DNA of 47,252 nt from Methylococcales bacterium (GTDB lineage: Bacteria; Pseudomonadota; Gammaproteobacteria; Methylococcales; JAZGGE01): NCBI GenBank assembly GCA_036480195.1, contig JAZGGE010000302.1:1-47252 (forward strand), in the 5' to 3' direction. The notes under the pieces were generated by a model. That model did not search any database, was not told the DNA's origin, and saw nothing but the letters and a program-made list of their open reading frames with translations. Of the stretch, positions 16,771-47,041 are shown piece after piece; positions within the stretch are counted from its first letter, which is position 1, and each line of letters starts with the position of its first letter. Made by a program: the position numbers and the translations under genes.

Positions 16771-16778
16771 GATTGTGG

Positions 16779-21653: not shown

Positions 21654-22162
21654 TTTTAGATTCCTATTTAATTGAATAAAATTCAGGTGAGGATGGAAAG
21701 ACAGCGATATACACTAGGTGCCTTACACCGTATGTCTTATTCTATTGTTGTGATTGGGGTAGGTAAAAAATAACTCTTAAACCGTAGTCAACAGTAATGA
21801 AGTCACATTAGAAATTCTGTTAAATTGTTAATAGTTTTTCAGTGTAATAATTCACAGATCGAACTTAATAGAATGGCGTAATATTTATCCTGAATTATGA
21901 TATATAAACTTTATTTGTATTACGATTCGGGGTCGAGTTGTAATTTATGAGAAGATGCCCTCGTGTTTTATAGAGGTGATTATATATAGAACATGATTTT
22001 TTTAATATTAATTTCAATATATGTGAAAAAATACATAGATAAATAGCAAAACCATTAAATATTATATTTGAGAAATTTGTGATTTGTCATAACGCTAGCT
22101 TTTACAGAAAGATATTATCGATACTGTGATTCATTTAAACTTAATAACTGAAGGATAAAATA
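21654..22162. promoter_or_regulatory. AT-rich 509-bp divergent control region between the CRTAC1-like gene and the PKS
   Basis: It contains no ORF. There are long A/T runs (e.g. 21960-22110: ATATATAGAACATGATTTTTTTAATATTAATTTCAATATATGTGAAAAAATACATAGATAAATAGCAAAACCATTAAATATTATATTTGAG). AAGGA lies 7 nt before the PKS ATG. I could not pinpoint specific -35/-10 elements. Confidence 0.4.
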
Positions 22163-25100
22163 ATGGAATCTAGTAAATCACCCAATGAGATGGCATCCTC
22201 AAAAAAACATTTCAGTGATGAACCCATTGCTATCACTGGAATGGGATGTAGATTTCCCGGAGGCGCAGAATCACCGGAAGCATTCTGGAATCTTATTAGT
22301 CAGGGTAAGGATGGCATCGTTGATGTTCCGCGAGATCGGTGGGATGTTGATCGGTACTATGATCCAGATCCCAACAAACTGGGAAAGATGTACGTGAAAT
22401 CAGGTGGCTTTCTTGATCAGAGAATCGACCAATTCGATGCCCTGTTTTTTGGTGTATCTCCGAGAGAAGCTGCTTGCATGGATCCTCAGCAGAGAGTGTT
22501 GCTCGAAGTGGCTTGGGAAGCGATGGAAAATGCCGGGATAAATCCTGAGAGATTGCGAGGTAGCGAAACCGGTGTATTTATAGGTGGGTTTATGCTCGAC
22601 AATAACCTCACCCAAATGAATGTACTGAATAGGGATATGATCGGCCCGCATTCCGCGCTAGGGTCGACGATGACTATTCTTTCAAATCGTTTGTCATATG
22701 TATTCGATTTTCGCGGCCCGAGTGTGTCAATGGATACAGCGTGTTCTTCGTCTTTAGTTGCTCTACACTACGGATGTCAGGGTTTGTTAAATGGGGATTG
22801 TTCGGTAGCGTTGGTTGGTGGTGTCAATATTATGCATCGGCCTGAAAACCCAATTGCAATGTGCAAAGGACAGTTCTTATCTCCTGATGGTCGCTGTAAA
22901 AGCTTTGATTCAAGGGCTGATGGATACGGTCGTGGCGAAGGCGCGGGTATCGTTATCCTAAAAACGCGATCGGCCGCAATTCGTGATGGCGATGAAATTC
23001 ATGCGATTATTCGTGGAACAGGAGTCAATCAGGATGGCCACAGCGATGGAATCACTGTTCCCAATCCTGAATCACAACAAGAACTGATGCGTAAGGTATT
23101 TTCAGAAGCTAAAGTCGATCCCCGGCAGATTTGCTACATGGAGGCGCACGGAACCGGTACTCCGGTGGGCGACCCTTTGGAAGCCGGGTCTCTTGGGGCC
23201 GTGTTGGGGAAGGATCGCGGCTCAGAAAATCCCTGTGCGGTAGGATCTGTCAAAGCTAATATCGGTCACTTGGAAGCGGCTTCAGGAATCGCCGGGGTAA
23301 TTAAACTGGTGCTCTCTCTGCAACATAAACAGATACCACCGTTGGCAAACTTAAAAATGCCCAATCCGAATATTCCATTTGAAGAACTAGGGCTTAGACT
23401 TCCTATGTCACTCGAGTCAATGCCCTCAGGCAGTGAACCTGCTCTGGTTGCCATTAATTCATTTGGGTATGGTGGAACCAACGCTCACGCCATTCTTCAA
23501 GAAAACACAATTGAAAAGACGGAAATCTCGGAATCTCAAGAATTAACAGACGCAGATCCTTATCTGTTGCCACTCTCTGCAAAGAGCGAATCGGCAATGA
23601 AGGAACTTGCCAGTCGCTATTTGGAGAAAATAGACGCTGTCGATAGTCCTTCGTTGAGAGATTTGTGTTATTCCTCAAGTGTACATCGCGGGCATTACGA
23701 TTATCGATTAGGTGTGATCGCAAATACGATGGACGAAGTCAGAGACCAACTAAAAGACTTTGTCGATGGAATCGATAATGGGTCGCCGTCATTGGCGAAA
23801 GCGTTACCGGAGTCTACTAACAAGCCGGTATTTGTTTTTACTGGAATGGGGCCGCAATGGTGGGCTATGGGAAGGGAATTGCTAGACATTTACCCAGTTT
23901 TTCGGTCTGAAGTCGAACGTTGTGACAAGATTTTTACCAACCTGGCGGGGTGGTCGATTTTGCAAGCGATGTTAGCGGACAAGGAACTCTCAAATATTGC
24001 GGATACCGTTGTTGCACAACCGGCAAATTTTGTTTTACAAGTGGGATTAATAGCGCTGTGGCGATCTTTTGGTGTGGAACCGGCTGCAGTTATCGGTCAC
24101 AGCGTAGGTGAAGTAGCTTCTGCTTATATAGCGGGCGTTTTGAGTCTCGAAGATGCGATTAAGGTTAGTTATCATCGCAGTCGCGTTCAAAAGAAAGCAG
24201 CCGGGCTTGGAGGAATGCTAGCTGTCGGCCTTACAAAAAAAGAAGCTGACAAAATACTTGAAGATTACTACGGAAAAGTCTCTATCGCAGCGATTAATAG
24301 CCAATCAGCATTGACGTTGGCTGGGGATCAGCCTTCACTATCAAAAATTGCAGAAGCTTTGGAAGTGGACGGCGTTTTTAATCGATTATTGAAAGTTGAG
24401 GTTCCCTATCATAGTCCGTTAATGGAGCCGTTGAAGGACGAAATAAGATCGAGTCTTAGTGGACTAGAGACACGAGAGCCGAGTATACCGTTGTATTCCA
24501 CGGTAACTGGAAGGCTGATCGAGACGGCTAGTTATGATGCAGACTATTGGTGTCAAAATATTCGAGAGCCCGTCTTTTTTTCTGACACGATAAACACGAT
24601 GATAGAAGCAGGTTATCGACTTTTTGTTGAAGTGGGTCCTCATCCGGTATTGTCGACATCGATCAAAGAATGTCTGATGGGCCGAGGGAGTCAGGGAGTC
24701 GTTTTAACGTCGCTGCATTGTGAGAAACAAGAACAGAGCACCTTAATGCAGGCGTTAGCGAATCTGTATGCTGCTGGCTATTCACCGGATTGGAAACGCC
24801 TCTATCCAGACGGTGGAAATTTCATCTCCCTTCCCAACTATCCTTGGCAACGTGAAAGTTATTGGAATGAAACCGAAAAGGCATTGTTAGATCGCATCGG
24901 ATTGGAGCGGGTGAGTTTCTTGGGGGATAGTGTAAGATCGCCAAATCCTTGCTGGGAGAATACTCTTAACACCAGTACGTTACCATTCTTGGACGACCAC
25001 TATGTCGATGAATTACGGGTGTTACCGGGCGCTGCGTACGTTGAAGCCGGGTTGATGATACATGAAAATACAATCAACGATTCGGTTCCCGTACTGGAAA

Positions 25101-28100
25101 ATTTAGATTTCCATAATGCACTGGTGATCGATGATAGTGATGATCCCACGATTTATTGCTCTTTCGATCCAGAGTCACAAGTTTATCATGTTCATAGTCA
25201 TTCAAAAGTATCCGCAAGCCCATGGAGGCTACATGCCTCAGGTCGGTTATGCCGAACGCTTTCAGGGTCGCCTCCTCCGGTAAATTTAGAGGAGCTAAAA
25301 GCTTCATTGTCGGAATATATATCCAGTGATATGCACTACCAACGGATGAATGCTCGGGGTTTGGATTACGGTCCATATTTTCAAGGGGTACGTGAATTAT
25401 GGCTTAATTCTGATCGATCCAACGTCTTGGCGAAGATCGAAGGGCATAAAGATTTGGTGAGAAGCAAGGATCAGTATTTGCTGCATCCTACCTTGTTGGA
25501 CGCTTGCTTCCAGACATTATTGACGACCCTGGATGAAGGTGACGAAAATATTTACGTACCTGTCCATATTGATCGTGTTCATTTTTATTCGAGTCCGGAA
25601 AAAACATTTTGGTGTCTGGGGAGTATTAAGCGATGTCAAACCGGAATGATCGAAGGTGATCTGACTTTGTGCGACACCAATGGCACCGTATTGGTCGATA
25701 TTCGAGGTGTTCGTGCAAAGGCACTGACGAATAATACGGATGTTCTTGTAAATGCTCACCAGTGGACCTACCAATTCGATTGGAAACAGGCAGAGTTACC
25801 CGACACCTTTGAAAAACCGGAACGGGTTCTTCTATTTAAGGACGAAGGAGAAACAGGGAGACAATTGGTCGATCAGTTTAATGGTCGGGGTGCTCAGGAA
25901 ATTGTTACGGTAAAAGCAGCAGAAGCTTTCTGCTGTGACTCTTCGACGCACTATGGAATTCGTCCTGGACATAAGGAGGATATGCAGCAGCTGATAGCAA
26001 ATTGCAACGGATCGGGTTTCAGCCATATTGTTTATCTGTGGCCTCTTAACGCAAAATCGCAACAGCGCCCAATAACGGATTCGACTGATCTTGTTACTTG
26101 CCTGTATTTGATTCAGGCTTTGACCCAATTTCAAGGTAATAATCCGCCTCGTTTGGTTGTTGTAACCCAAGGAGCACAAGCAATTAGTGCCACTGAGTCC
26201 ATTGCTTCATTAGATCAAACGCCATTGTACGGATTGATCAGGGTAGCAATGAACGAGAATCCGGAGCTATCGTATCGCTTGGTCGATCTAGGCCCGGAGC
26301 TAACCGCCAGTCTATCACAACAGCTAGTTGACGAATGTCTGGCTGACGGTGGAGATGAGGAGGTCGTCTTACGTGATTCTGGGCGTTTTGTTCACCGATT
26401 TAATCGGATGGCGCTTAGCGATCCAAACGCCGAGATTGACGAAGACCAGCCCACTGCAGTCTCAATTAACCGACCTTATCGATTGGAAATCGACGAATCT
26501 CGAGATATTGGTAGTCTTCGATTCAGAGAAAACGTTCGTTCAAAGCCACAATCGGAAGAAGTCGAGATCGAGGTTCATGCGGCCATGCTCGATACGATCG
26601 ATGTTCTAGCAAGCCAACACGATATTATTACTGGTACTGGCACCGAGATTATTTTGGTCGGCCGAATTTGCAGAATTGGAGATTCTGTTGGTTCTTTGAA
26701 GGTCGGTGACTCAGTGGTCAGTATGACGGATAATCTAATCGGTTCCTTTATTACCAAGCGCTTTGAAACCGTGTTTTCATTCCCGGCACTGAAGAACTTT
26801 GATTTTGAAGCGTGTGCGACGATTCCTCTGGATTTTGTAACCGCTTTTCATGGTCTTTTCCAAACCGCCCGGATCAAGCGTAGAGAACGCATCGTGATTC
26901 ACGATGCGGCGAGTGCAACGGGCTTGGCGGCGATTCAAGTAGCGCGTTGGCAAGGCGCAGATATTTATGCAACTGTTAACAACGAGAATCAAAAAGATTA
27001 TCTTCTCGCGTTAGGCATTAAACACGTATGGTTGTCGGATCCGATTTTATCTTTTGACAGTATATCAAAGCTCACGTTGGGCAAGGGCGTGGATGTTGTC
27101 TTTAATAGTGGATCAGTGGAGCTGGCCAGAAAAAGCATTGCTTTATTGGCTCCGTTTGGACGGATTATAGTGACTGATAAAAACGAATCGGTTTTACCGA
27201 GCTTCGAGATGGGGAATGTCAGCTCGAATATACAAATCATCAACATTGACATCGCCGGTATGATTATTGAGCAGCCGAATTTATTCAAGAACTTGCTTAA
27301 TCAGGTTTGTAATCATATTAACGCTTCTGACTTTACCCCCCTACCGTATACGTCGTTCACCTCACGTCAAGTCATTAAGGCGTTTCAATACCTCCAGGAT
27401 GACGAATCACCAACCAAGGTGGTTCTCAACCTACGTAGTATCCCAGCAATATCGATTTACCGAAAAATTGAGAAAACACCACTATTTTCCGAGAATGCCA
27501 GCTATCTAATCACCGGTGGGTTTGGAGGGTTTGGGCTATCAACGGCGGCTTGGATGGTCGAAAATGGTGCCCGAAATTTAGTCTTGGTGGGCCGGAGAGG
27601 GGCCGCCACCGATGAGGCAAAACAAGCTGTGCAGTCGATCGAGTCGAAAGGTTGCAAAGTTCTTTCGTTAGCAGTCGATATCTCTGAAGAAGCCCAAGTC
27701 GTCAAATTGTTCGCGAGTATTGCCAAAAGCTTACCGCCTCTGAGGGGTGTCATGCATACGGCCGCAGTACTTGATGATGGACCCCTTAATTATTTAACAA
27801 AAGATCAATTCGATCGCGTGATGGGCCCTAAAGCGCTAGGTGCTTGGAATTTGCATCAACATTTATCCGATTCAACGCTGGATTTTTTCTTTCTATTTTC
27901 CTCAATCGCGTCGCAAGTGGGAAGTCCTGGTCAAGCCACTTATGTTGCGGCCAATACGTTCCTCGATGCTTTGGCACAATTGCGAAACGCGCAAGGATTG
28001 ACGGCAACGAGCATCCAGTGGGGTGCGCTGGGTGATGTTGGTATGGCTGCTCGTCATGAAGAGGTCAAACAATACTTCGCCCGGGTTGGCATTAATTCTC

Positions 28101-28720
28101 TATCGCCTAAACAGGCAGTGAGTATGTTGGGTAGGTTACTGCCAAAATTGCCCGAGCAGATTGCAATAGCCGATATGAATTGGGAGAAATGGGGAGAATT
28201 CAATCCGGTTTGGGCCGGATCCCCTCGATTCTCTCACCTTGTTTCTGAACATGCTGATCTGGAGCCAGCGGTTTCTACAAATAAATATATTCAGCAAATA
28301 TTAGCAGCAACAGCAGACGCTAAACCGAAAGTTGTGACGGATCTAATCGCCGAGGAAGTTGCTCGGATATTACGTTTACCCATTGATAAAGTTGAGATCG
28401 ATCAGTCGCTCGCCAACATGGGGGTCGACTCTCTACTGGCAATGGAATTGCAGACGGCGATAAAGCAGAATTTCGGAGTCAACATATCAACCTTAGAGCT
28501 AATGAAGGGCAACACACTAGCTCAAATTGGTACGCAAATTCAAGAGAAGATACCGATTTCAATAGGTTCGTCAAAATCAACTGCGGATGCGTTGTTGCTC
28601 CCGGAAGAGACAGAAGTAGAAAACAAAGCTATCCAGCCGGATGATGTCGATGCACTATCAGACGACGAAGTAACGACTTTATTAAACGCTTTATTATCGA
28701 AAGAGGAGGTTCCTCAATGA
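22163..28720 (+). CDS. Type I polyketide synthase, single fully reducing module KS-AT-DH-ER-KR-ACP (MAS-like architecture), no loading domain
   Basis: Approximate domain spans are by my residue count.
- KS (~22223-23500): DTAC194SSS, EAH329GTGT, NIGH369LE.
- AT (~23825-24742): GHS647VGE, VEVPYHS.
- DH (~24905-25732): LDDH946YVDELRVLPGAAY, YGPYF, LLD1113ACFQ.
- ER (~26471-27433): EVEIEVHAAMLDTIDV, VIHDAASATGLAAIQVA.
- KR (~27497-28042): ITGGFGGFGL, LDD motif, Y1927VAAN.
- ACP (~28310-28537): GVDS2090LLAMEL. Confidence 0.93.
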   Translation: MESSKSPNEMASSKKHFSDEPIAITGMGCRFPGGAESPEAFWNLISQGKDGIVDVPRDRWDVDRYYDPDPNKLGKMYVKSGGFLDQRIDQFDALFFGVSPREAACMDPQQRVLLEVAWEAMENAGINPERLRGSETGVFIGGFMLDNNLTQMNVLNRDMIGPHSALGSTMTILSNRLSYVFDFRGPSVSMDTACSSSLVALHYGCQGLLNGDCSVALVGGVNIMHRPENPIAMCKGQFLSPDGRCKSFDSRADGYGRGEGAGIVILKTRSAAIRDGDEIHAIIRGTGVNQDGHSDGITVPNPESQQELMRKVFSEAKVDPRQICYMEAHGTGTPVGDPLEAGSLGAVLGKDRGSENPCAVGSVKANIGHLEAASGIAGVIKLVLSLQHKQIPPLANLKMPNPNIPFEELGLRLPMSLESMPSGSEPALVAINSFGYGGTNAHAILQENTIEKTEISESQELTDADPYLLPLSAKSESAMKELASRYLEKIDAVDSPSLRDLCYSSSVHRGHYDYRLGVIANTMDEVRDQLKDFVDGIDNGSPSLAKALPESTNKPVFVFTGMGPQWWAMGRELLDIYPVFRSEVERCDKIFTNLAGWSILQAMLADKELSNIADTVVAQPANFVLQVGLIALWRSFGVEPAAVIGHSVGEVASAYIAGVLSLEDAIKVSYHRSRVQKKAAGLGGMLAVGLTKKEADKILEDYYGKVSIAAINSQSALTLAGDQPSLSKIAEALEVDGVFNRLLKVEVPYHSPLMEPLKDEIRSSLSGLETREPSIPLYSTVTGRLIETASYDADYWCQNIREPVFFSDTINTMIEAGYRLFVEVGPHPVLSTSIKECLMGRGSQGVVLTSLHCEKQEQSTLMQALANLYAAGYSPDWKRLYPDGGNFISLPNYPWQRESYWNETEKALLDRIGLERVSFLGDSVRSPNPCWENTLNTSTLPFLDDHYVDELRVLPGAAYVEAGLMIHENTINDSVPVLENLDFHNALVIDDSDDPTIYCSFDPESQVYHVHSHSKVSASPWRLHASGRLCRTLSGSPPPVNLEELKASLSEYISSDMHYQRMNARGLDYGPYFQGVRELWLNSDRSNVLAKIEGHKDLVRSKDQYLLHPTLLDACFQTLLTTLDEGDENIYVPVHIDRVHFYSSPEKTFWCLGSIKRCQTGMIEGDLTLCDTNGTVLVDIRGVRAKALTNNTDVLVNAHQWTYQFDWKQAELPDTFEKPERVLLFKDEGETGRQLVDQFNGRGAQEIVTVKAAEAFCCDSSTHYGIRPGHKEDMQQLIANCNGSGFSHIVYLWPLNAKSQQRPITDSTDLVTCLYLIQALTQFQGNNPPRLVVVTQGAQAISATESIASLDQTPLYGLIRVAMNENPELSYRLVDLGPELTASLSQQLVDECLADGGDEEVVLRDSGRFVHRFNRMALSDPNAEIDEDQPTAVSINRPYRLEIDESRDIGSLRFRENVRSKPQSEEVEIEVHAAMLDTIDVLASQHDIITGTGTEIILVGRICRIGDSVGSLKVGDSVVSMTDNLIGSFITKRFETVFSFPALKNFDFEACATIPLDFVTAFHGLFQTARIKRRERIVIHDAASATGLAAIQVARWQGADIYATVNNENQKDYLLALGIKHVWLSDPILSFDSISKLTLGKGVDVVFNSGSVELARKSIALLAPFGRIIVTDKNESVLPSFEMGNVSSNIQIINIDIAGMIIEQPNLFKNLLNQVCNHINASDFTPLPYTSFTSRQVIKAFQYLQDDESPTKVVLNLRSIPAISIYRKIEKTPLFSENASYLITGGFGGFGLSTAAWMVENGARNLVLVGRRGAATDEAKQAVQSIESKGCKVLSLAVDISEEAQVVKLFASIAKSLPPLRGVMHTAAVLDDGPLNYLTKDQFDRVMGPKALGAWNLHQHLSDSTLDFFFLFSSIASQVGSPGQATYVAANTFLDALAQLRNAQGLTATSIQWGALGDVGMAARHEEVKQYFARVGINSLSPKQAVSMLGRLLPKLPEQIAIADMNWEKWGEFNPVWAGSPRFSHLVSEHADLEPAVSTNKYIQQILAATADAKPKVVTDLIAEEVARILRLPIDKVEIDQSLANMGVDSLLAMELQTAIKQNFGVNISTLELMKGNTLAQIGTQIQEKIPISIGSSKSTADALLLPEETEVENKAIQPDDVDALSDDEVTTLLNALLSKEEVPQ

Positions 28721-31700
28721 ACAATATGCACGCGCATTCAGCTGATTTGTCGAGTGAGGAGAAACGCCGCTTGCTGGCTTCACTGCTTGATAAAAACGCG
28801 AGGGTTGGCTCAACGGGAAAAGAGAACTTGTCCTTATCTTCAGGCCAAAAAGCCCTATGGTTCTTGCATCAGAGCGCCCCATATAGCTCCGCCTATCATA
28901 TCGCATTTGCGTTACGTATTCGCTCTAACTTTAGGGTTGATGCGTTGCAAAGTGCTTTTCAGGCACTTGTTGATCGACATCCAATGCTACGTTCGAAATA
29001 TGCAGTGGAAAACGGTGAACCGATACAACGAGTCTACGAACAAGAGGAAGTGTGCATCGAACGGATCGATGCGTCAGGTTTAACCGAGACTGACTTAAAG
29101 TCGAAAGTAACGGAATCCTATGAGCGACCTTTCGATCTAGAAAGTGATCGGTTGATTCGAATGACTTTGTTGAGTCGAGAGCAAGACGATCATATTCTTC
29201 TACTCACGGTTCATCATATTGCTTTCGATGGTTGGTCGTTGTGGCTTTATCAAGATGAATTGAAAAAGCTATATTGCGCGGAGCTTGCGGGGATACCGGC
29301 CAAGTTGCCCGAAGTAAGTGTTTCTTACTCCGATTTTATTCTTTGGCAACAGGGCTTTCTGGCGGGTGAAGATGGTGAAAAGCAATGGGAATATTGGCGA
29401 AACCAACTCGCTGATGTTGAACCCGTTTTGAATTTACCGTTGGATAAATTACGCCCTGCCACTCAGTCTTATGCGGGCGCGTCGATTCCATTTGAACTGG
29501 AATCGACGTTGGCTAAAAGGTTAACAACAGTGGCTCAAGCACAAGGTGTGACGCCGTTTACACTCTATCTTAGTGCTTTTCAGGTTTTGTTATCTCGCTA
29601 TACTCGGCAACAAGAGATTCTAGTTGCTTCTCCGACAACGGGTCGAACCGAAAGCCAATTTTCACAGGTTGTTGGCTATTTCGTTAATACAGTGGTCTTA
29701 AGGGGGGATCTATCAAATAATCCAACCTTTTCGGAATTTTTGCAGCGTACTCGGGATACCGTTTTGGAAGCGTTGGAGCACCAAGATTTCCCCTTTTCGG
29801 TACTGGTTGAACGTTTGCAACCACAGCGAGATCCAAGTTATTCACCCTTGGTGCAAACCTCTTTCGTTTTACAGAAGCCACAACAGTCTTCGGCCAATCA
29901 CTTAGTACAAGGGAAAAACAGTACCCCTCAAACCTGGGGTGATATGGAGGTAACGGTCTATAACATTAATCAGCAAGAAGGGCAATTTGACCTTGAGTTG
30001 GAAATGCTGGATAGAGGCGATGGGTTGAAGTCAGTCATTAAATACAACACCGATTTATTTCATAAGGAAACTATTGAGCGGATGACGGGTCACTTCAGTT
30101 CACTATTAGTGGGCATTGCAAGTAATCCGCAGCAACGCATAACAGATATCCCACTATTAACCCTCGACGAAACGGAAGAATTACTGATCCGATGGAACAA
30201 CACCGATTACCACTATTCGGATAATGCTTGTCTGCAAACCTTGGTGGAGCGTCAGGCTAAAAAAACCCCAGACAATACAGCCGTTGTTTCTGAAGATAAC
30301 ACGCTGAGCTACCGCGATCTTAATTCAGACGCAAATCAACTGGCTCATTATTTAAAAAACAAAGGTATTGGCCCTGATGTGGTGGTCGGAATCTTTGCAC
30401 AACGCTCGATCGAAATGGTGGTCGGTTTACTAGCCATCTTAAAAGCGGGTGGTGCGTATCTTCCATTGGATCCCGAGTTGCCGGATGACCGGATTGCCTT
30501 TATGTTGCAAGATGCCAAAGTTAATGTTGTGCTGACTCAAGAGGACTTGGCCGGGGATCTTGCGGTATATAACATCGATATCGTCTGTTTGAACGCGGAT
30601 TGGATTGAAATTTCAAAGTGTAATTCTGAGAACCCGAGCATCGAAACAACACTGGATGATTTGGCCTATGTCTTGTACACCTCGGGATCAACCGGTCAGC
30701 CTAAAGGTGCCATGAATACTCATCGAGGTATCAGTAATCGGCTGTTATGGATGCAACAAGTCTACCGACTCATGGAAACGGATCGTGTGTTGCAGAAGAC
30801 GCCTTATAGTTTTGACGTCTCGGTTTGGGAATTCTTTTGGCCTTTACTAACGGGTGCGCAACTGGTGATGGCCAGACCGGGAGGACACAAGGATTGCCGA
30901 TATCTCATCGAAACCGTTATTGATCAAGGTATTACGACGATACATTTTGTGCCTCCCATGCTGCAGCTATTTGTCGAGGAGAATGATGTTGAAAACTGTA
31001 GATGTCTGAAACGAGTGATCTGTAGCGGCGAAGCCTTACCGATCGAATTGCAGACACGATTCTTTTCGAAACTGTCAGCTGAGCTGCACAATCTCTACGG
31101 CCCAACGGAAGCCGCGATCGATGTTACCTTTTGGGAGTGCGATTCCCACACTTCGTTAGACTTTATTCCCATTGGCCGACCGATTGCCAATACTCAGATT
31201 TATCTCCTTGATGATGGACTCAATCCAGTCCCCATTGGTATTCCAGGCGAGCTTCATATTGGTGGTGAAGGTTTGGCAAGAGGTTATTTAAATCGTGATG
31301 AATTGACGGCAGAAAAATTTATCACCAATCCCTTCGATAATAGTGGCCAGTCAAGGTTATACAAAACCGGGGATCTGGCGCGATTCATGAGCGATGGGAA
31401 TATCGAATTTTTGGGTCGTATTGATAACCAGGTAAAAATTCGAGGTTTTCGTATCGAACTCGGAGAAATCGAAACACTACTATCGCAGTTTTCCGGTATT
31501 CAAGAAACCGTAGTATTGGCGAGGGACAGCGGTCGGGCCGAAAAATGCTTGGTGGCGTATGTCGTGTGCGAGCGTGACCAGACGCCGACACCATCAATAC
31601 TACGGGAATATCTTGGAAAAAGCGTACCAGACTATATGATTCCCAGCGCATTTGTTTTTCTCGAAGCCATGCCGCTAACGCATAACGGTAAAATTAATCG

Positions 31701-32940
31701 GCGTGAGCTGCCTGAACCGGATAATGCTAGAGGTCGTACTGAACAGATCTACGTTCCTCCTCGGGATGAGCTGGAACAAAAGTTGACGGAATTGTGGGAG
31801 AAGGTATTGAATAAGCGTCCACTCGGCGTGATGGATAACTTTTTCGAATTTGGTGGTCACTCTCTACTCGCGGTTCGGCTGACTGCCGACATTGAAAAGG
31901 AGTTTAATAAAACCGTACCGCTATCCTTGTTTTTCCAGTATCCAACGATTGCATCCTTCAGTCGATGGTTGCGGGAAAACAAAATAGCGCTGCCGTGGTC
32001 ACCCTTGGTACCAATTCAAAGTTCTGGCAATTTGCCACCTTTGTTTTGTGTGCCCGGTGGTGGTGGAAATGTTCTTTACTTTTACGAACTGGCGCGCTGT
32101 TTGGGGCCCAATCAGCCTTTTTATGGTCTTCAAGCACGAGGTTTAGATGGAATAGATGAGCCTTTTTCAACAGTGGAGGCGATGGCTGCCCATCATATTG
32201 AGGCAATACGCTCGGTACAAGCCTACGGTCCCTATTCTCTTGGCGGACATTGTTTCGGAAGTATGGTGGCTTTCGAGATAGCTCAACAGCTGCAGCGGCA
32301 GGGTCAGGAAGTTTCTTTGGTGGTGATATTGGATGCTCCAGCACCGATCGATGCGAATGCTCATCCTTCCATAGAGTGGGATGACATCGACTGGATTTGC
32401 CATTTTGGAAACGTCATCGAACAGGCGACCGAGCAACAATTCGAGCTGGTACGTCAGGTGTTACAAGATCTTTCTCCTGATCAACGTTTGGGCCGTCTGA
32501 AAGATTGTTTGCAACGTGCAGGGTTCTTGCCGGAGCACGTTGATGATCGTCATGTTAAAGGGCTTTTAGAGGTATTTAAGACGAATGGCAGAATTCAGTA
32601 TTCACCCGTAGATATTTTTCCGACCCCACTGGTTTTGCTTAGAGCCAGCGAATTTCATGCAGATTACAATTTCGATGGTCGCGAGGAGGGAACGATTCCC
32701 GTGTCAGCGCTTGGCTGGAATACGCTGACTTCGGCATCAGTCGAAATCCGAAATGTGCCGGGTAATCATATTACGATGATGTCCTCGTCGAATGCAGAAG
32801 CGCTCGCGAATGTACTATCAGACTGTCTGGAAAATAGTCGCAGAGAAAAGTCGGTGGATTCGAATTTATCGCAACCTCTTGTGTCACCAATGCCCTTGAG
32901 TGCTGGTTCAACTCACGTAAAGTTGACGAACGTTAGGTGA
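28717..32940 (+). CDS. Non-ribosomal peptide synthetase, single module C-A-PCP-TE (Ser-type A-domain code; TE with Cys nucleophile)
   Basis: The start overlaps the PKS stop as ATGA, with GAGGAGG 7 nt upstream.
- C (~28834-30126): HHIAFDGWS.
- A (~30214-31716): LAYVLYTSGSTGQPKG, FDVSVWEFF, NLYGPTEA, GELHIGGEGLARGY, YKTGDLAR, GRIDNQVKIRGFRIELGEIE, NGKINR.
- PCP (~31759-31971): FFEFGGHSLLAV.
- TE (~32014-32811): PLFCVPGGGGNV, GGHC1179FGS, ILDAP, GNHITMM. Confidence 0.93.
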   Translation: MNNMHAHSADLSSEEKRRLLASLLDKNARVGSTGKENLSLSSGQKALWFLHQSAPYSSAYHIAFALRIRSNFRVDALQSAFQALVDRHPMLRSKYAVENGEPIQRVYEQEEVCIERIDASGLTETDLKSKVTESYERPFDLESDRLIRMTLLSREQDDHILLLTVHHIAFDGWSLWLYQDELKKLYCAELAGIPAKLPEVSVSYSDFILWQQGFLAGEDGEKQWEYWRNQLADVEPVLNLPLDKLRPATQSYAGASIPFELESTLAKRLTTVAQAQGVTPFTLYLSAFQVLLSRYTRQQEILVASPTTGRTESQFSQVVGYFVNTVVLRGDLSNNPTFSEFLQRTRDTVLEALEHQDFPFSVLVERLQPQRDPSYSPLVQTSFVLQKPQQSSANHLVQGKNSTPQTWGDMEVTVYNINQQEGQFDLELEMLDRGDGLKSVIKYNTDLFHKETIERMTGHFSSLLVGIASNPQQRITDIPLLTLDETEELLIRWNNTDYHYSDNACLQTLVERQAKKTPDNTAVVSEDNTLSYRDLNSDANQLAHYLKNKGIGPDVVVGIFAQRSIEMVVGLLAILKAGGAYLPLDPELPDDRIAFMLQDAKVNVVLTQEDLAGDLAVYNIDIVCLNADWIEISKCNSENPSIETTLDDLAYVLYTSGSTGQPKGAMNTHRGISNRLLWMQQVYRLMETDRVLQKTPYSFDVSVWEFFWPLLTGAQLVMARPGGHKDCRYLIETVIDQGITTIHFVPPMLQLFVEENDVENCRCLKRVICSGEALPIELQTRFFSKLSAELHNLYGPTEAAIDVTFWECDSHTSLDFIPIGRPIANTQIYLLDDGLNPVPIGIPGELHIGGEGLARGYLNRDELTAEKFITNPFDNSGQSRLYKTGDLARFMSDGNIEFLGRIDNQVKIRGFRIELGEIETLLSQFSGIQETVVLARDSGRAEKCLVAYVVCERDQTPTPSILREYLGKSVPDYMIPSAFVFLEAMPLTHNGKINRRELPEPDNARGRTEQIYVPPRDELEQKLTELWEKVLNKRPLGVMDNFFEFGGHSLLAVRLTADIEKEFNKTVPLSLFFQYPTIASFSRWLRENKIALPWSPLVPIQSSGNLPPLFCVPGGGGNVLYFYELARCLGPNQPFYGLQARGLDGIDEPFSTVEAMAAHHIEAIRSVQAYGPYSLGGHCFGSMVAFEIAQQLQRQGQEVSLVVILDAPAPIDANAHPSIEWDDIDWICHFGNVIEQATEQQFELVRQVLQDLSPDQRLGRLKDCLQRAGFLPEHVDDRHVKGLLEVFKTNGRIQYSPVDIFPTPLVLLRASEFHADYNFDGREEGTIPVSALGWNTLTSASVEIRNVPGNHITMMSSSNAEALANVLSDCLENSRREKSVDSNLSQPLVSPMPLSAGSTHVKLTNVR

Positions 32941-32983
32941 GATCACGTCATTTGTTTTGGAAATTTAGACTGGGGAATTAATT

Positions 32984-35329
32984 ATGGTTAAAGTATATAT
33001 TCGTTGGGTTATTCGGTGGCGCTGGTTCGTCGTGATCGCTTCAATTTTAGCGGTAGTGGGCGCAGGTAGCGGTGGCCAATTTTTGCTATTCAACAATGAC
33101 TACCGCATTTTCTTTAGCGAGGAAAATCCGCAACTGAAAGCTTTCGATGTACTACAAAAAACCTACACCAAAAGTGATAACGTTCTGTTCGTATTAGCAC
33201 CCGCGAACAAACAGGTTTTCTCACGAGAGATGCTAAGTACAGTAGAAAAACTAACCGATAAAGCCTGGAAGATACCCTATTCGACACGGGTTGATTCGAT
33301 TACAAATTTTCAACATAGTTATGCTGTGGAAGATAACTTAATCGTTGGCGACCTTGTCAAGAACTCCGATCAGTTATCAGCCAACGATCTGCAGCGTATC
33401 GAATCAATTGCATTACGGGAACCGTTACTCGTTAATCTGCTAGTTTCACCAAACGCTCAGGTTACCGGCGTTAACGTATCGATTCAGCTGCCAGAAAAGG
33501 GTGCAAATGACGCGGTAAGAGAGATTGCGGCTTACGTGAGACAACTGGCGGCAGAAATAACAGCCGAAAATCCGGGATTGGAAATTCATCTTACCGGAAT
33601 GTTGATGATGAACAATGCCTTTCCGGAATCATCGGAATACGATATCAAGCTTCTGGTTCCAATTATGTTCGGGACCATTATTATTCTCGCCGGCATCATG
33701 CTAAAGACAGTGAGCGGTGTTATTGCAACCTTGCTTGTTATAGTATTTTCCATATTTTCAGCGATGGGGCTTGCGGGTTGGTTGGGCATCGCACTGTCCT
33801 CTACCAGTCTCGCTGCACCCAATATCATTTTGACGCTGGCGGTGGCGGATTGTATTCATATTCTCTCCAATTTTCTTAAAGCTATGCGTGACGGTGAAGC
33901 AAAAGACGAAGCTCTTACCGAGAGTCTTAGAATAAATTTCCAGCCGGTATTTTTAGCCACACTAACGACTACCATTGGATTCTTGTCACTTAACTTCAGT
34001 GATGCGCCACCGTTTCATGATCTAGGGAACATTACTGCACTAGGTATCATCACCGCATTTTTACTTTCGATTACTTTTTTACCTGCAGTGGTTGCAATCC
34101 TTCCCATTCGTGTGCGTCAGGATCGAGATCTGACATCGCGGAGCATCGAACGATTAGGGCAGTTTGTCATTCGAAAAAAAAGGTCATTGTTGTTGGGGAT
34201 GTCCGCCTTAGTGGTCGCCTTAGTGGCGTGCATACCCGCTAACGAGCTTAATGACGAATACATTAAATATTTTGGCGAATCGCTGTCTTTCCGAAGAGAT
34301 ACGGACTTTGCGATGGAAAATCTAACAGGGATTTATTACATCGACTATTCACTTCGCTCAAAAGGCTCTGGAGCAGTGACGGAGCCAGCTTTTCTCGCTA
34401 ATGTTGATGCGTTTGCAAGTTGGTATCGGAAACAGCCGGAAGTACTTCATGTGAACAGTATAACCGACACATTCAAACGTCTAAATAGAAATATGAACGG
34501 CGATGATTCGAGTTGGTATCGTTTGCCCGAAGAGAGTGATCGCGCTGCCCAATACTTGTTGTTATATGAGCTTTCACTGCCCTATGGTTTGGATCTTAAC
34601 GATCGTATTAACATTGATAAGTCAGCCACTCGTTTAACGGCAACCCTTAAAAACCTTTCGAGCCGAGAAGTATTGGCCTTGGAAGAACGGGCTCAGGATT
34701 GGTTAAAAAACAATGCACCACTCTCCATGCACGTACCAGGGTCCGGTCCAACGATTATGTTTGCTCATATCGGGCAACGTAATATCGAAAGCATGTTAAT
34801 TGGGACGACAATAGCCTTAGTGTTGATTTCGTTCATTCTGATTTTCGCGTTTCGATCCTTCAAACTTGGATTGATCAGCTTGGTTCCAAATCTTGTACCG
34901 GTCGGCATGGCTTTTGGTTTATGGGGCCTTGTTGTCGGTCGTGTGGGCTTGGCTTTGAGTGTTGTTGCAGCGATGACGCTTGGGATTGTCGTTGACGATA
35001 CTGTCCATTTCTTGAGCAAGTACAGGAGAGCTCGAAACGAGAAGAATATGACTTCAGAACAGGCGATTCTGTACAGTTTCAATACCGTTGGTACAGCGCT
35101 TTGCGTCACTTCTGTTGTTCTTATCGCGGGATTCTCGGTGTTGGCATTTTCCAGTTTCGAGATCAATTCGGGCATGGGCATGTTAACCGCGATTGCGATC
35201 GGTTTTGCGCTGATTGCGGATTTACTACTGTTACCACCATTGTTAATGAAAATAGAGAGGAAAAATCATGAAACGGAAACTACTCGTCTTAATTCCACTA
35301 CTCTTAAGCTCTCACGGGACTCCAGCTGA
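32984..35329 (+). CDS. MMPL/RND-superfamily exporter (HpnN-like, 12-TM with two large periplasmic loops)
   Basis: The protein has two homologous halves. Each has a TM helix, a ~160-190 aa soluble loop and a 5-TM bundle carrying a charged motif (TLAVADCIHILSNF and LGIVVDDTVHFLSKY). This is typical of MMPL/SSD lipid exporters. Confidence 0.85.
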   Translation: MVKVYIRWVIRWRWFVVIASILAVVGAGSGGQFLLFNNDYRIFFSEENPQLKAFDVLQKTYTKSDNVLFVLAPANKQVFSREMLSTVEKLTDKAWKIPYSTRVDSITNFQHSYAVEDNLIVGDLVKNSDQLSANDLQRIESIALREPLLVNLLVSPNAQVTGVNVSIQLPEKGANDAVREIAAYVRQLAAEITAENPGLEIHLTGMLMMNNAFPESSEYDIKLLVPIMFGTIIILAGIMLKTVSGVIATLLVIVFSIFSAMGLAGWLGIALSSTSLAAPNIILTLAVADCIHILSNFLKAMRDGEAKDEALTESLRINFQPVFLATLTTTIGFLSLNFSDAPPFHDLGNITALGIITAFLLSITFLPAVVAILPIRVRQDRDLTSRSIERLGQFVIRKKRSLLLGMSALVVALVACIPANELNDEYIKYFGESLSFRRDTDFAMENLTGIYYIDYSLRSKGSGAVTEPAFLANVDAFASWYRKQPEVLHVNSITDTFKRLNRNMNGDDSSWYRLPEESDRAAQYLLLYELSLPYGLDLNDRINIDKSATRLTATLKNLSSREVLALEERAQDWLKNNAPLSMHVPGSGPTIMFAHIGQRNIESMLIGTTIALVLISFILIFAFRSFKLGLISLVPNLVPVGMAFGLWGLVVGRVGLALSVVAAMTLGIVVDDTVHFLSKYRRARNEKNMTSEQAILYSFNTVGTALCVTSVVLIAGFSVLAFSSFEINSGMGMLTAIAIGFALIADLLLLPPLLMKIERKNHETETTRLNSTTLKLSRDSS

Positions 35330-36053
35330 ACCGTCACCGGAGCAGCGAGGACTGGAAATCGCAACTGAAGCAGAAAATCGTGACAAGGGATTTCAAAATT
35401 TCGTTGCCGATCTTACCATGATCTTAAGAAATCGGCAGGGAGAAGAAAGTGTTCGCTTTATTCACCGAAAAACCCTTGAAGTAGAAGAGGACGGAGATAA
35501 AACATTGGATGTTTTTAGGCAGCCGAAGGATATTAAAGGAACCACAATACTGACCTATTCTCACGGATTGGAGCAGGACGATCAATGGATATTTATGCCG
35601 GCAATTAAACGCGTCAAGCGTATTTCATCGGTCAACAAATCGGGTCCCTTTATGGGGAGTGAATTTTCCTATGAGGATATTGCTGATCAGACATTGAAAA
35701 AATTTCATTACAAATTCTTGGGTAATGAGGTTGTTGATGGACATGAATGCTTTATGTTAGAGAGAATCCCTGCCTATGAGTATTCTGGATACACTCGACA
35801 GATCGAATCGATGGATACCGAAATTTATCAGCCGCGTAAGATTACCTACTACGATCGTAAAGGTGCTTTGTTAAAGACTCTAAAATTTTCCGGTTATGAA
35901 CAGTATTTGGGTAAACACTGGCGACCAAACCAGATGAATATGGAAAACCATCAATCCGGAAAGACAACCCAATTGATTTGGACGAATTATGAATTTCAAA
36001 TTGCTGTGACAGATCTTGATTTCACCCAAAATAGTATGAAGAGGATTCGTTAG
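35268..36053 (+). CDS. LolA-like 'outer membrane lipoprotein-sorting protein' family periplasmic protein
   Basis: Signal peptide MKRKLLVLIPLLLSS. The body matches my recollection of the LolA_like family (GLEIATEAENRDKGFQNF...DQWIFMPAIKRVKRISS..GPFMGSEFSYEDI). The start is 62 nt inside the end of the MMPL gene, with an AGAGAGG RBS. Confidence 0.75.
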   Translation: MKRKLLVLIPLLLSSHGTPAEPSPEQRGLEIATEAENRDKGFQNFVADLTMILRNRQGEESVRFIHRKTLEVEEDGDKTLDVFRQPKDIKGTTILTYSHGLEQDDQWIFMPAIKRVKRISSVNKSGPFMGSEFSYEDIADQTLKKFHYKFLGNEVVDGHECFMLERIPAYEYSGYTRQIESMDTEIYQPRKITYYDRKGALLKTLKFSGYEQYLGKHWRPNQMNMENHQSGKTTQLIWTNYEFQIAVTDLDFTQNSMKRIR

Positions 36054-36109
36054 CTGTAATGACTAAGGTGAGAAGAAAAAATACCAGGATTGCGTAGGAG
36101 TAGAAAAGA

Positions 36110-37348
36110 ATGGGATTGATACATCGAGGGTTAAATAGATCTGCCGTGTTTATATTATTGATATCGACAGCAATTTCAGTAAAGTCCGCCGATTTTTCCA
36201 ACTACGGCGAATTTACGGGCTTTACCGCTATCGATTTGCGGCTCTTTCCTGAATCCCCCCGGTTTAACGAACAGGATAAGGATATTTTGTTCCCTTCTCT
36301 TGTTATGCAACCCGAATATCGTTTTGAGTGGAATGGCGGTAATGATCGATTGACACTTATCCCGTTTTTCCGCTTAGATCCTATCGATGAAGAACGGCAA
36401 CATTTTGATTTGAGGGAGCTAAATTGGATACATCTTGAGCCTTCCTGGGATATTCGTATTGGCTTGGGCGTCGTGTTTTGGGGTGTAACAGAATCGCGAC
36501 ACCTTGTGAATATTATTAACCAGACGGATACTTTAGAGGATATAGATGAAGAAGATAAGCTAGGTCAACCCATGATCAATCTAAATCTTGTGCGTAACTG
36601 GGGTAACCTGGAGTTTTTTTTATTACCTAAATTTAGACAGCGAACCTTCCCAAATCGTTACGGACGGCTCCGTGCTCCGATTCCAATCGATACAGACAAC
36701 GCGATGTATGAATCGGCGGCTAAGTCAAATCATCTCGATTTCGCGGGCCGATGGAGCCATGTCATTGGCGACTGGGATATTGGGCTCGCTCATTTCGTCG
36801 GCACGAGTAGAGAACCTAGGCTTGTGCCGCATTCTAACGAAATAGGACAACGGATACACTTAGTCCCTCATTACGATATCATCAATCAAACGAGTATCGA
36901 TGTCCAAGCCACGAAAGGAAACTGGTTATGGAAACTAGAAGCGATTTCACGCGCCGGTCATGACCGACGGTTTCAAGCTGTTGTTACGGGTTTTGAATAT
37001 ACTTTTTATGGCACAGCTAATACCAGTATCGATGCTGGAATCGTTGCTGAATATTTGTGGGATGATCGTAGCGAAGAGGCGCCACTGACACCCTTCGACA
37101 ATGATATATTTATCGGCAGTCGGTTGGCGTTTAACGACGAACAGAGCACAGAACTCCTAATGGGCGCGTTTATTGACCTCAGCAGTGGAGCCAGCATCAT
37201 TACGGTTGAGGGCAGTCGGCGCATGGGTGATTCCTGGAAGTTGGATCTTGATGCACGAATTTTTGGTAATATTCCAGAAAGTGATTTGTCGTTGTCTAGC
37301 CTGCGCAATGATTCCTTCCTAAACATTCGGTTGTCCTATTTTTTCTAG
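36110..37348 (+). CDS. Putative outer-membrane beta-barrel protein (unknown family)
   Basis: Signal peptide ...LLISTAISVKSA/DF. Alternating hydrophobic and polar stretches run throughout. The C-terminus ...FLNIRLSYFF ends in an aromatic residue, as in OMP beta-signals. An AGGAG RBS is present. It is the last gene of the PKS operon. Confidence 0.55.
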   Translation: MGLIHRGLNRSAVFILLISTAISVKSADFSNYGEFTGFTAIDLRLFPESPRFNEQDKDILFPSLVMQPEYRFEWNGGNDRLTLIPFFRLDPIDEERQHFDLRELNWIHLEPSWDIRIGLGVVFWGVTESRHLVNIINQTDTLEDIDEEDKLGQPMINLNLVRNWGNLEFFLLPKFRQRTFPNRYGRLRAPIPIDTDNAMYESAAKSNHLDFAGRWSHVIGDWDIGLAHFVGTSREPRLVPHSNEIGQRIHLVPHYDIINQTSIDVQATKGNWLWKLEAISRAGHDRRFQAVVTGFEYTFYGTANTSIDAGIVAEYLWDDRSEEAPLTPFDNDIFIGSRLAFNDEQSTELLMGAFIDLSSGASIITVEGSRRMGDSWKLDLDARIFGNIPESDLSLSSLRNDSFLNIRLSYFF

Positions 37349-37422: not shown

Positions 37423-37584
37423 TATACCTCTCGCGTTCAAGAACACCCATTTTCAGAACGCATCTATTCGCGAAGTGTGTCGTTGTAGAATCTTGAAATA
37501 GATGGCTATTCCTGCGATTCTACGTCTAGCCCTTCGCGAAAATCTACCCGCTCAAAACGGGCATTCTTGAACGCGAAAGGTATA
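37423..37584. repeat. MITE-like palindromic element, family A (compact copy)
   Basis: TATACCTCTCGCGTTCAAGAAC... and ...CTTGAACGCGAAAGGTATA are terminal inverted repeats. The two arms are imperfect reverse complements over about 55 bp. It is related to 6657-6903 (opposite orientation) and 47042-47099. Confidence 0.8.
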
Positions 37585-37586
37585 TA

Positions 37587-37688
37587 AGACTTCACTGGGA
37601 AATCGGATCCCTGAATACCGTCAAGCAAATGACGACGAATAATGCTGACCTTTTCATCAGATCGATAGCTTTTTCGCTTCTTTCTCAT
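37587..37688 (-). pseudogene. Possible N-terminal remnant of an IS3/IS66-type transposase OrfA (HTH_Tnp_1-like), cut off at the MITE
   Basis: MRKKRKSYRSDEKVSIIRRHLLDG resembles the basic N-terminus plus 'xSxEEKxxIVxxxxxxG' helix of transposase OrfA proteins. The frame then runs into the family A repeat and loses similarity. The match is short, so the call is weak. Confidence 0.3.
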
Positions 37689-47006: not shown

Positions 47007-47041
47007 GGGTATGTCCAGAGTGGGGGTAACATTTATTTTTA

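Follow-up and report, generated by a model that had tools for sequence, protein, structure and literature searches.

The best-described relative of the locus analyzed here is the A1S_0112-A1S_0119 operon (ABBFA_003406-003399) of Acinetobacter baumannii, which is regulated by quorum sensing and forms one transcript as determined by reverse transcription-PCR (PMC5376624). This operon is needed for surface motility, pellicle or biofilm formation, and virulence, and it is required for the production of Ac-505 (acinetin 505), a lipopeptide-like compound of 505 Da found in the culture supernatant (PMC5376624). Here we describe a locus of related architecture at positions 22163-37348 of a 47,252-nt stretch of DNA from a Methylococcales bacterium (GenBank assembly GCA_036480195.1, contig JAZGGE010000302.1), hereafter the window, in which a type I polyketide synthase (PKS), a peptide synthetase of the non-ribosomal type (NRPS), an MMPL transporter, a LolA-like periplasmic protein and an outer-membrane β-barrel are encoded in succession. 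Judging from its sequence, the locus is rather probably one operon, the products of which build an amphiphilic acyl-amino-acid and move it out to the cell surface or into the medium. The five genes are:

22163..28720, + strand: type I PKS, 2185 aa, with the Pfam domain order ketosynthase (KS), acyltransferase (AT), dehydratase (DH), enoylreductase (ER), ketoreductase (KR), acyl carrier protein (ACP)
28717..32940, + strand: single-module NRPS, 1407 aa, with the Pfam domain order condensation (C), adenylation (A), peptidyl carrier protein (PCP), thioesterase (TE)
32984..35329, + strand: MMPL/HAE3-type RND inner-membrane transporter, 781 aa (PF03176, E 4e-44)
35268..36053, + strand: periplasmic LolA-like protein, 261 aa (PF17131, TP_0789-like, E 1e-57; Ka/Ks 0.09)
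36110..37348, + strand: 412-aa outer-membrane β-barrel, family unnamed, with a signal peptide and the C terminus ...RLSYFF

Comparison with described export systems

The NRPS of the Acinetobacter operon is AB3403 (PDB 4ZXH/4ZXI), which corresponds to A1S_0115 and is a stand-alone C-A-PCP-TE protein. A metagenome scan recovered 13 contigs with AB3403 orthologues at 94-100% identity, and the one that was annotated (L091) encodes, in this order, a LuxR-type regulator, an acyl-AMP ligase-like enzyme, an acyl-CoA dehydrogenase, an ACP, the NRPS, a 1216-aa fusion of SRPBCC, MMPL and LolA_like (PF17131) domains, the 424-aa A1S_0117, an SDR/α-β-hydrolase and a phosphopantetheinyl transferase (PPTase). 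Both loci therefore share the succession of a C-A-PCP-TE NRPS, an MMPL protein, a LolA_like protein and a signal-peptide protein of ~420 aa that ends in an aromatic residue. In both, the TE nucleophile is a cysteine (GWCFG in AB3403) and the Asp of the catalytic triad is canonical, and the MMPL protein of the window aligns end to end with A1S_0116 (23% over 786 aa, BLASTP E 2e-49). Searches with tblastn against the Acinetobacter fusion matched the MMPL part at E 2e-35 and the LolA-like part at E 7e-25. The homology of the barrels is distant, as plain tblastn of gene 5 against the Acinetobacter barrel gave no match; A1S_0117 was nevertheless aligned with the profile of the gene 5 family by hhalign (90.7%, E 1.2e-6, 283 columns), and when three Acinetobacter loci were searched with hmmsearch, it was the sole open reading frame (ORF) to be matched, at E 6e-9 to 4e-8.

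There are also differences between the two loci. In Acinetobacter the acyl chain is supplied by the acyl-AMP ligase-like enzyme, the acyl-CoA dehydrogenase and a free ACP, whereas the window has a type I PKS in their place; the code of the AB3403 A domain (DILQLGVVWK) is of the Gly type, whereas that of the window (DVWHISLIDK) is of the Ser type. The MMPL and LolA-like domains are fused behind an N-terminal SRPBCC domain in Acinetobacter, whereas they are separate genes in the window, where SRPBCC is absent, as are counterparts of the SDR/α-β-hydrolase (A1S_0118) and of the PPTase. An AbaR/LuxR regulator lies upstream of the Acinetobacter operon, and the identities between the two loci are low (23% for MMPL, 26% for LolA, 28% for TE). 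The portions of the Acinetobacter literature available to us call A1S_0116 'RND' and A1S_0117 'related to porins', and within these portions a LolA-like domain is not mentioned.

The initial annotation of the window, which was made from the sequence alone, had stated that no characterized Gram-negative version of such a cluster with LolA-like and outer-membrane protein genes was known. This statement has to be withdrawn, since A1S_0112-A1S_0119 has the same backbone together with genetics, a polycistronic transcript and a product mass, and since aryl-polyene clusters also carry an analogous module of RND, LolA-like and LolB-like proteins (PMC8253772). In these Gram-negative clusters for polyketide-type lipids, a role in bringing the lipid into the outer membrane was proposed for ApeM (MMPL-family RND), ApeL (LolA-like) and ApeN (DUF3261, LolB-like) (PMC8253772), and the same module is present in the annotation of E. 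coli CFT073. Unlike the window, aryl-polyene clusters have a small LolB-like outer-membrane partner instead of a barrel, use type II synthesis and add no amino acid. Orthology with ApeM and ApeL was considered and rejected (MMPL against ApeM, E 0.06; LolA-like against ApeL, E 0.07).

Three further systems resemble parts of the locus. In the mycobacterial phthiocerol dimycocerosate (PDIM) system (PpsA-E/Mas, MmpL7, LppX, DrrABC), a synthase of the mycocerosic acid synthase (MAS) type with the order KS-AT-DH-ER-KR-ACP is likewise encoded beside an MMPL transporter. LppX is said to have been found by Sulzenbacher in 2006 to have a LolA-like fold. The window differs from PDIM in a transporter that scores best as HAE3, a carrier that is soluble and not a lipoprotein, a true β-barrel, a Gram-negative envelope, and an AT that looks malonyl-type, so that methyl branches are not expected. 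In mycobacteria a further envelope protein is needed to bring PDIM to the surface (PMC11539658). The paralogous four-part system AmeABCD of Castellaniella defragrans also combines an HAE3 RND protein, a periplasmic protein of the LolA superfamily and an outer-membrane protein, with neither a membrane-fusion protein nor TolC, and its deletion causes monoterpene sensitivity and raised dye accumulation (PMC6394551). However, it has a DUF1302 outer-membrane protein (605 aa), a DUF1329 protein (451 aa) and a COG4447 protein as accessory components, and its cargo is an external toxic substrate and not a product of the same operon. Finally, SwrW of Serratia is a one-module C-A-T-TE enzyme (T being the carrier domain) that joins serine to an ACP-borne fatty acyl chain, yielding serrawettin W1 (serratamolide), a surface-active amino-lipid that promotes spreading growth (PMC7767323). 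In that system, likened here by description only, the acyl chain comes from fatty-acid synthesis and not from a dedicated PKS, and MMPL, LolA-like and barrel genes are not described. Lipid clusters that bring their own RND and LolA-like exporters have thus been described before in Gram-negative bacteria, and the window adds no new principle. Set against the part of the Acinetobacter literature that was covered, what appears to be new is the combination, that is, a type I PKS that would feed a Ser-specific NRPS of the AB3403 class, together with three separate cassette genes.

Operon structure and conservation

The five ORFs were described at the outset as tightly packed on the same strand, and their coordinates, strand and all four junctions were reproduced: genes 1 and 2 share an ATGA stop/start, genes 2 and 3 are 43 nt apart, genes 3 and 4 overlap by 62 nt, and 56 nt separate genes 4 and 5. 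A purine-rich ribosome-binding site precedes each of the five start codons. In a sister genome (L105), the NRPS of which is 88% identical to that of the window, all five genes are kept between the same flanking genes, and the first three junctions (ATGA, 43 nt and 62 nt) are unchanged, although the gap between the LolA-like and barrel genes measures 176 nt there versus 56 nt in the window. The ratio of nonsynonymous to synonymous substitution rates (Ka/Ks) between the two genomes ranges from 0.08 to 0.16 for the five genes, indicating purifying selection on each of them. The region in front of the operon is presumed to hold its promoter and regulatory sequences:

21654..22162, + strand: upstream intergenic region, 509 nt, AT-rich (27.5% GC), common to the operon and a divergent FG-GAP/ASPIC gene

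This region is ~79% identical to its counterpart in the sister genome (400 identical positions), where a 164-nt insertion at about 3280-3440 lies just upstream of the PKS start (relative to window position 22150). Three weak sigma-70-like matches fall within it, in a scan that was at background level overall, and an Rfam search gave zero matches across the whole window.

A discordant form of the first gene was observed in one assembly. In a long-read contig of the same organism from the European Nucleotide Archive (L001), a 4-nt CAAC insertion at ~1915-1918, which corresponds to window position 28024/28025, splits the PKS into products of 1958 and 225 aa between KR and ACP. The PKS is intact and identical in the window and in two independent short-read assemblies, and the split is likely an assembly error of the low-coverage ('8x') contig.

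The polyketide synthase

The KS-AT-DH-ER-KR-ACP order of MAS-type enzymes, previously read from the translation, was recovered by Pfam with the following domains and motifs:

22220-23512, + strand: KS, E 3e-91, with the Cys-His-His triad
23828-24778, + strand: AT, E 5e-74, with GHSVG and VPYH
24920-25735, + strand: DH, with HxxxExxxxP and DxxxQ
26483-27430, + strand: ER-like domain (ADH_zinc_N, E 2e-12)
27497-28033, + strand: KR, E 1e-66, with an LDD motif and the catalytic Tyr
28343-28531, + strand: ACP, with DSL
28553-28717, + strand: C-terminal tail, a putative docking element

Over its whole length the protein can be aligned with the NCBIfam model of the mycobacterial MAS-like Pks2, but its 1204 bits fall short of the equivalog cut-off of 2400. 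A loading module ahead of the KS is lacking. The methylmalonyl specificity that characterizes MAS-like PKSs was not found, as the AT motif VPYH differs from the methylmalonyl motif YASH; it resembles instead the FabD motif VPSH. The AT is therefore likely to use a malonyl extender and the chain to carry no methyl branches.

The ER domain deserves a separate comment, as the enzyme had been designated a fully reducing PKS. An ER-like domain is indeed present, and its Ka/Ks of 0.136, within the range of 0.10-0.18 seen for every catalytic domain of the PKS, indicates that it is still under purifying selection. However, its NADPH motif (HDAASATGLAA) is degenerate in comparison with the usual HAAAGGVGxAA, so that the designation 'fully reducing' is not secure. 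The corresponding motif in the homologous PKS of Coleofasciculus reads HAAATGVGLAA, and Pfam detected no ADH_N match in the ER domain of the window.

The peptide synthetase and its thioesterase

The downstream partner had been proposed to be a single C-A-PCP-TE module, and Pfam is in agreement:

28825-30186, + strand: C domain, E 2e-114, with HHIAFDG
30247-31692, + strand: A domain, E 7e-91, with a Ser-type code
31777-31971, + strand: PCP, with GGHSL
32035-32817, + strand: TE, E 1e-31
32251-32253, + strand: codon of the TE nucleophile Cys1179, in GHCFG (aa 1177-1181)

Transfer of the chain from PKS to NRPS, also suggested in the initial annotation, is made plausible by the translational coupling through ATGA, by the NRPS N-terminal leader and PKS C-terminal tail, which resemble a docking pair, and by the adjacent homologous pair in Coleofasciculus. 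Pairwise alignment of the A domain with GrsA gave the code DVWFISLIDK. This version was rejected, because the alignment of EntF, run as a control, slipped by one residue at position 278 in the same way. After correction of the register the code is DVWHISLIDK, and it is close to DVWHFSLVDK, obtained for EntF by the same alignment and also the accepted code of the E. coli enzyme. The predicted specificity for serine is thus supported.

In the TE, the nucleophile is a cysteine instead of the usual serine. Its best solved relative in the PDB is AB3403 (4ZXH), which is the only solved NRPS TE with a Cys besides ObiF, which forms a β-lactone, and SulM, which forms a β-lactam (PMC11298585; PMC6668435). 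In ObiF and SulM the triad Asp is relocated to an alternative strand (PMC6668435, PMC11298585), whereas AB3403, still termed uncharacterized as of 2024, keeps it at the canonical position (PMC11298585). By sequence alignment, the triad Asp of the window TE falls at this EntF/AB3403 position (VVILDAP), so that the TE has the Cys but not the relocated Asp of the ObiF/SulM type.

These features bear on the nature of the product. The same machinery might make not a plain N-acyl-serine but a compound that the Cys-TE releases in a cyclized, oligomerized or otherwise reactive form; a β-lactone, a tetramate and a dimer resembling serratamolide are examples. It would act as a secreted signal, antibiotic or surfactant and not as a lipid of the envelope. 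Besides the chemistry of ObiF and SulM, this would be in keeping with the β-hydroxyl group that serine offers, with SwrW, a Ser-specific C-A-T-TE enzyme that dimerizes acyl-serine to a cyclic surfactant (PMC7767323), and with Ac-505, which was recovered from the supernatant and looks like the glutathione adduct of an electrophile (PMC5376624). The canonical Asp, on the other hand, sets the window TE apart from ObiF and SulM (PMC11298585). A Cys was found in 13 of the 64 related TEs, mostly in ordinary two-module NRPSs, and is hence not a rare specialization. Moreover, AB3403, which prefers glycine (PMC5376624), and the Cys-TE protein of Methylomicrobium lacus both have Gly-type codes, which provide no side-chain nucleophile, so β-lactone formation is not the general purpose of the TE Cys. 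A product of this kind is fairly unlikely, though it deserves consideration, and an ObiF-like, β-lactone-forming TE in particular is disfavored by the Asp position and the Gly-type relatives. The Cys was also evaluated as a marker of linkage to MMPL genes and was rejected, given its frequency among two-module NRPSs.

The export genes

HMM searches returned PF03176 for gene 3 and PF17131 for gene 4, in line with what had been expected of them. The transporter obtains its best NCBIfam score with the HAE3 model TIGR00921 (179 bits, below cut-off) and reaches 136 bits with the actinobacterial MmpL model TIGR00833, for which the cut-off is 875; its nearest solved relatives, all distant, are MmpL4/5 and HpnN. 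Two intramembrane residues, His292 and Asp671, are invariant in 48 MMPL homologues, which would fit a proton-driven pump, and the Ka/Ks of the gene is 0.08. The LolA-like protein begins with MKRKLLVLIPLLLSSHG..., a signal peptide in which the lipobox cysteine is absent, and it has a close solved homologue in 3BK5 (E 2.5e-78), which comes from structural genomics and to which no function is assigned. It is proposed to be a carrier of hydrophobic cargo. The canonical Lol pathway differs in that it uses a PF03548 LolA together with LolCDE and acts on lipoproteins, whereas gene 4 belongs to PF17131, lacks a lipobox and is paired with an RND pump and a barrel, LolCDE genes being absent from the window.

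Gene 5 matched no Pfam or NCBIfam model. Its AlphaFold2 model, built with 46 homologues, is all-β with ~18-20 strands (pLDDT 84, pTM 0.80), and Foldseek placed it closest to the 18-stranded exporter AlgE (TM 0.58-0.60), followed by general porins, at identities of <=11%. The earlier assignment of 36110-37348 to the outer-membrane barrels is borne out by this fold. The most conserved part of the protein is the following:

36461-36574, + strand (aa 118-155): most conserved barrel block, …VFWGVTESRHLVNIINQTD…EDKLGQPM, with many invariant columns

This block is the least confident part of the model, where it forms a loop and a short helix, and it may possibly act as a plug or constriction inside the barrel lumen. 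Canonical tripartite RND pumps need an adaptor of the HlyD family and an outer-membrane channel of the OMF/TolC type; neither the operon nor the rest of the window was found to encode an HlyD or OEP domain, a LolA-like protein takes the place of the periplasmic adaptor, and the barrel is similar to AlgE and porins and not to TolC.

Distribution of the export cassette and its coupling to biosynthesis

The barrel family gave >7,600 matches in a database clustered at 90% identity and 2,490 representatives at the 50% level, 1,035 of them with E ≤ 1e-30, as well as at least 600 matching stretches in species-representative genomes. Among the matches listed are members from Pseudomonadota, Tectimicrobiota, Acidobacteriota, Planctomycetota, Nitrospirota, Nitrospinota, Bacteroidota and other taxa. 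Among 65 genome loci that extend far enough upstream to be informative, 50 show the collinear arrangement of MMPL, LolA-like and barrel genes. In some barrel members (P0290, P0319, P0348, P0298, P0301, P0315, P0385) the N terminus has a peptidoglycan-binding domain of the OmpA, AMIN or SPOR type, which fits an outer-membrane location. Fusions of LolA-like and barrel domains were sought among gene 5 homologues of 570-740 aa and rejected, as the extensions are OmpA, AMIN or SPOR domains or have no Pfam match. In variant cassettes, the MMPL pump is replaced by a MacB-type ABC transporter made up of two FtsX/MacB_PCD permeases and a YHS-domain ATPase:

L013 1100-6335; L040 6483-11191; L065 3-4087: MacB-type variant cassettes, each a same-strand cluster with LolA-like and barrel genes

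Several genomes place this cassette next to NRPS or PKS genes. In M. lacus, the NRPS (Gly-type code DILQLGMVWK, Cys-TE with GHCFG) and the MMPL protein form one continuous ORF in two assemblies, followed by a LolA-like gene, four further genes, the barrel and a PPTase:

L004 6974-9887: the four intervening genes of M. lacus (321, 191, 198 and 225 aa), three with no Pfam match and one with weak TPR matches only

In a metagenomic contig, the gene of an NRPS with an AB3403-like TE precedes, in this order, an SRPBCC gene, one for an MMPL-LolA fusion and one for a protein of 400 aa. In a metagenome-assembled genome of Nitrosomonas sp. (L023 3-11987), a PKS with visible AT-DH-KR-ACP is followed by an enzyme of the class I/II aminotransferase fold, the cassette and a PPTase; the enzyme is possibly an α-oxoamine synthase, which would couple acyl chain and amino acid by another route while relying on the same exporter. 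In Desulfuromonas, the cassette lies upstream of a KS-AT-KR-DH PKS and several oxidoreductases. A different exporter is found in Coleofasciculus, where a homologous PKS (KS-AT-DH-cMT-ER-KR-ACP) is adjacent to an NRPS that is 54% identical to that of the window (C-A-PCP-TE, Ser-type pocket, ordinary serine TE), and the pair is followed by a DevBCA-like HlyD/FtsX/ABC exporter. Because this pair stands next to another tripartite exporter, the biosynthetic pair appears to be linked to export in general. The resulting picture is modular: an acyl-amino-acid unit would be joined to whichever exporter is available, and the MMPL-LolA-barrel cassette seems to have been captured several times. The barrel fold, the conserved order of the three genes and the NRPS-MMPL and MMPL-LolA fusions together lend support to the dedicated trans-envelope route that was originally suggested for genes 3-5, in which the transport itself is a prediction from sequence.

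A number of observations nonetheless weigh against one dedicated synthesis-and-export operon. A TetR-family regulator is present in 30 of the 50 collinear loci, mostly directly upstream; 77% of the cassettes are free-standing; and PKS domains occur within 10 kb in only 1 of 80 reference-genome loci, which makes adjacency weak evidence. The cassette, being usually stand-alone and TetR-linked, is a recruited general module and not an exporter born with the pathway. The promoter and terminator scans were at background (25 promoter-like sites versus 30.8 expected; 16 terminator-like sites versus 14.3 expected) and leave the transcript ends uninformed. A PPTase is encoded in each of the M. lacus, Nitrosomonas and Acinetobacter clusters and absent from the window, and the degenerate ER motif adds to these points. 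On the side of the chemistry, the proposed link between the acyl chain and glycine in Ac-505 was described as 'neither N- nor O-linked' (PMC5376624), and simple N-acylation may not fit the AB3403 enzyme class, the release chemistry of which may be unusual.

Alternatively, genes 3-5 might be a general hydrophobe efflux cassette that happens to lie downstream of the PKS-NRPS pair and has substrates of its own, for example toxic hydrophobic compounds. In favor of this reading, most cassettes stand alone beside a TetR repressor, as is usual for efflux pumps, the homologous Coleofasciculus pair uses another exporter, and the MMPL protein of the window is no nearer to the NRPS-fused cassette of M. 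lacus (52% identity) than to free-standing ones (up to 59-62%). The window cassette, however, has neither a TetR nor any other regulator beside it and begins only 43 nt after the NRPS stop, a spacing kept in the sister genome, and cassettes linked to acyl-amino-acid pathways are met with in further, independent cases, gene fusions of two kinds among them. We therefore regard mere proximity of the two gene sets as unlikely.

A functional clue of another kind comes from Thalassolituus, where an MMPL-LolA fusion and an adjacent porin-like protein were strongly induced on the n-C28 alkane, and the passage of alkane was proposed by the authors (PMC6304351). A cassette that works inwards, taking up or handling external hydrophobic substrates unrelated to the PKS-NRPS product, is nevertheless very improbable for the window, since an importer would have no reason to be fused to an NRPS TE, and since export of a surfactant would account just as well for the induction on a solid alkane. 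RND and MMPL proteins are proton-driven exporters. In addition, deletion of the related AmeABCD system raises the accumulation of hydrophobic compounds (PMC6394551).

Taken across genomes, the MMPL pump (or a MacB-type ABC engine), the soluble PF17131 protein and the barrel of ~400 aa may constitute a widespread, mechanistically uncharacterized class of trans-envelope exporters of lipids and other hydrophobes with an interchangeable engine, captured by several unrelated acyl-amino-acid pathways, that of the virulence-linked A. baumannii operon among them, in which a shuttle and a dedicated barrel take the place of the duct formed by a membrane-fusion protein and TolC. This is a tentative proposal, to which we give slightly less than an even chance; a literature search found no mechanistic study of the MMPL-LolA-barrel cassette. 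If it holds, the window would represent a clean, unfused example with a defined cargo of its own making, and a good model for study.

Flanking genes and other features of the window

The genes on both sides of the operon are unrelated to it: a GDSL lipase gene and a divergent FG-GAP/ASPIC gene upstream and, after 503 nt, gnd, zwf and feoAB downstream. A link of the GDSL lipase or the FG-GAP/ASPIC gene to the lipid product is possible. The list of parts that the initial annotation had reported as missing is upheld, as the Pfam scan of all window ORFs of at least ~150 aa found no PPTase, MbtH-like protein, acyl-AMP ligase or cluster-adjacent regulator. Other features of the window are:

within 18190-21653: GDSL lipase/acylhydrolase gene (+ strand) and gene of a secreted FG-GAP/ASPIC protein (- strand), both syntenic in the sister genome
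15922-16770, - strand: DUF692/MbnB-like enzyme, downstream of the 188-aa ORF
15177-15971, - strand: DUF2063 partner
16779-17345, - strand: 188-aa ORF with a signal peptide and a Met/Gly/Lys-rich tail containing two xGxCGx motifs
37423-37584: inverted repeat in the gap between gene 5 and gnd, with 53-nt arms that are 77% complementary and 56 nt apart

The genes at 15177-17345 look like a copper-related locus of the bufferin/MNIO type for a ribosomally synthesized and post-translationally modified peptide. The inverted repeat at 37423-37584 looks like a small repeated element of the REP/MITE kind, and a 62-nt piece of this region (37526-37587) recurs in inverted orientation at ~47039-47100, near the window end, with 95% identity. 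A chemotaxis cluster occupies positions 1-9113 (MCP, CheW, STAS, CheR, CheD, CheB, MCP and a response-regulator/SpoIIE phosphatase), and the feo gene further downstream of the operon, within 41872-44412, is a FeoA-FeoB fusion.

Proposed pathway and its implications

The pathway suggested here draws on gene order, domains, motifs, the Ser-type pocket, the barrel fold, conservation, purifying selection and the Acinetobacter homology; its chemical and transport steps are predictions, and so are the direction of transport, the length of the chain, the way in which the product is released and the place where it ends up. The KS would presumably take its starter, a fatty acyl thioester, from primary metabolism, as the PKS has no loading module, and the PKS would lengthen the chain with malonyl units and reduce it, once or iteratively, the working of enoyl reduction being uncertain. 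The ACP-bound chain would then pass to the NRPS through the pair of C-terminal and N-terminal docking elements, and the C domain would N-acylate a serine that has been activated by the A domain and is held on the PCP. The Cys-TE would take over the acyl-seryl chain as a thioester and release the product. For export, the MMPL pump would extract the product from the inner membrane, the soluble LolA-like protein would shield it across the periplasm, and the dedicated barrel would pass it into or through the outer membrane.

The product is thus probably a fatty-acyl-serine-type lipid that is carried across both membranes. The initial annotation had regarded it as an envelope lipid; the logic of lipid synthesis and export holds, whereas the location is weakened, as the Acinetobacter product was recovered from the culture supernatant. 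By analogy, a surface-active amphiphile, secreted or exposed at the surface, is more likely than a structural membrane lipid, because of the surface motility and pellicle phenotypes of the Acinetobacter operon and of the properties of serrawettin W1 of Serratia.

For the organism, these results mean that the cluster probably makes an unreported amphiphile of the acyl-serine type. For the AB3403 class of one-module Cys-TE NRPSs, they suggest that a type I PKS can serve as the acyl source of these enzymes and serine as their amino acid. One export module with a LolA-like protein and a barrel would link three observations not connected before, namely the motility and virulence operon of A. baumannii, the Thalassolituus proteins induced on alkane and the hundreds of cassettes with a TetR gene, and the barrel family of this module has neither a name nor a Pfam model. 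With its separate genes and the synthesis of the probable cargo encoded next to them, the cluster of the window would be convenient for studying this export module.

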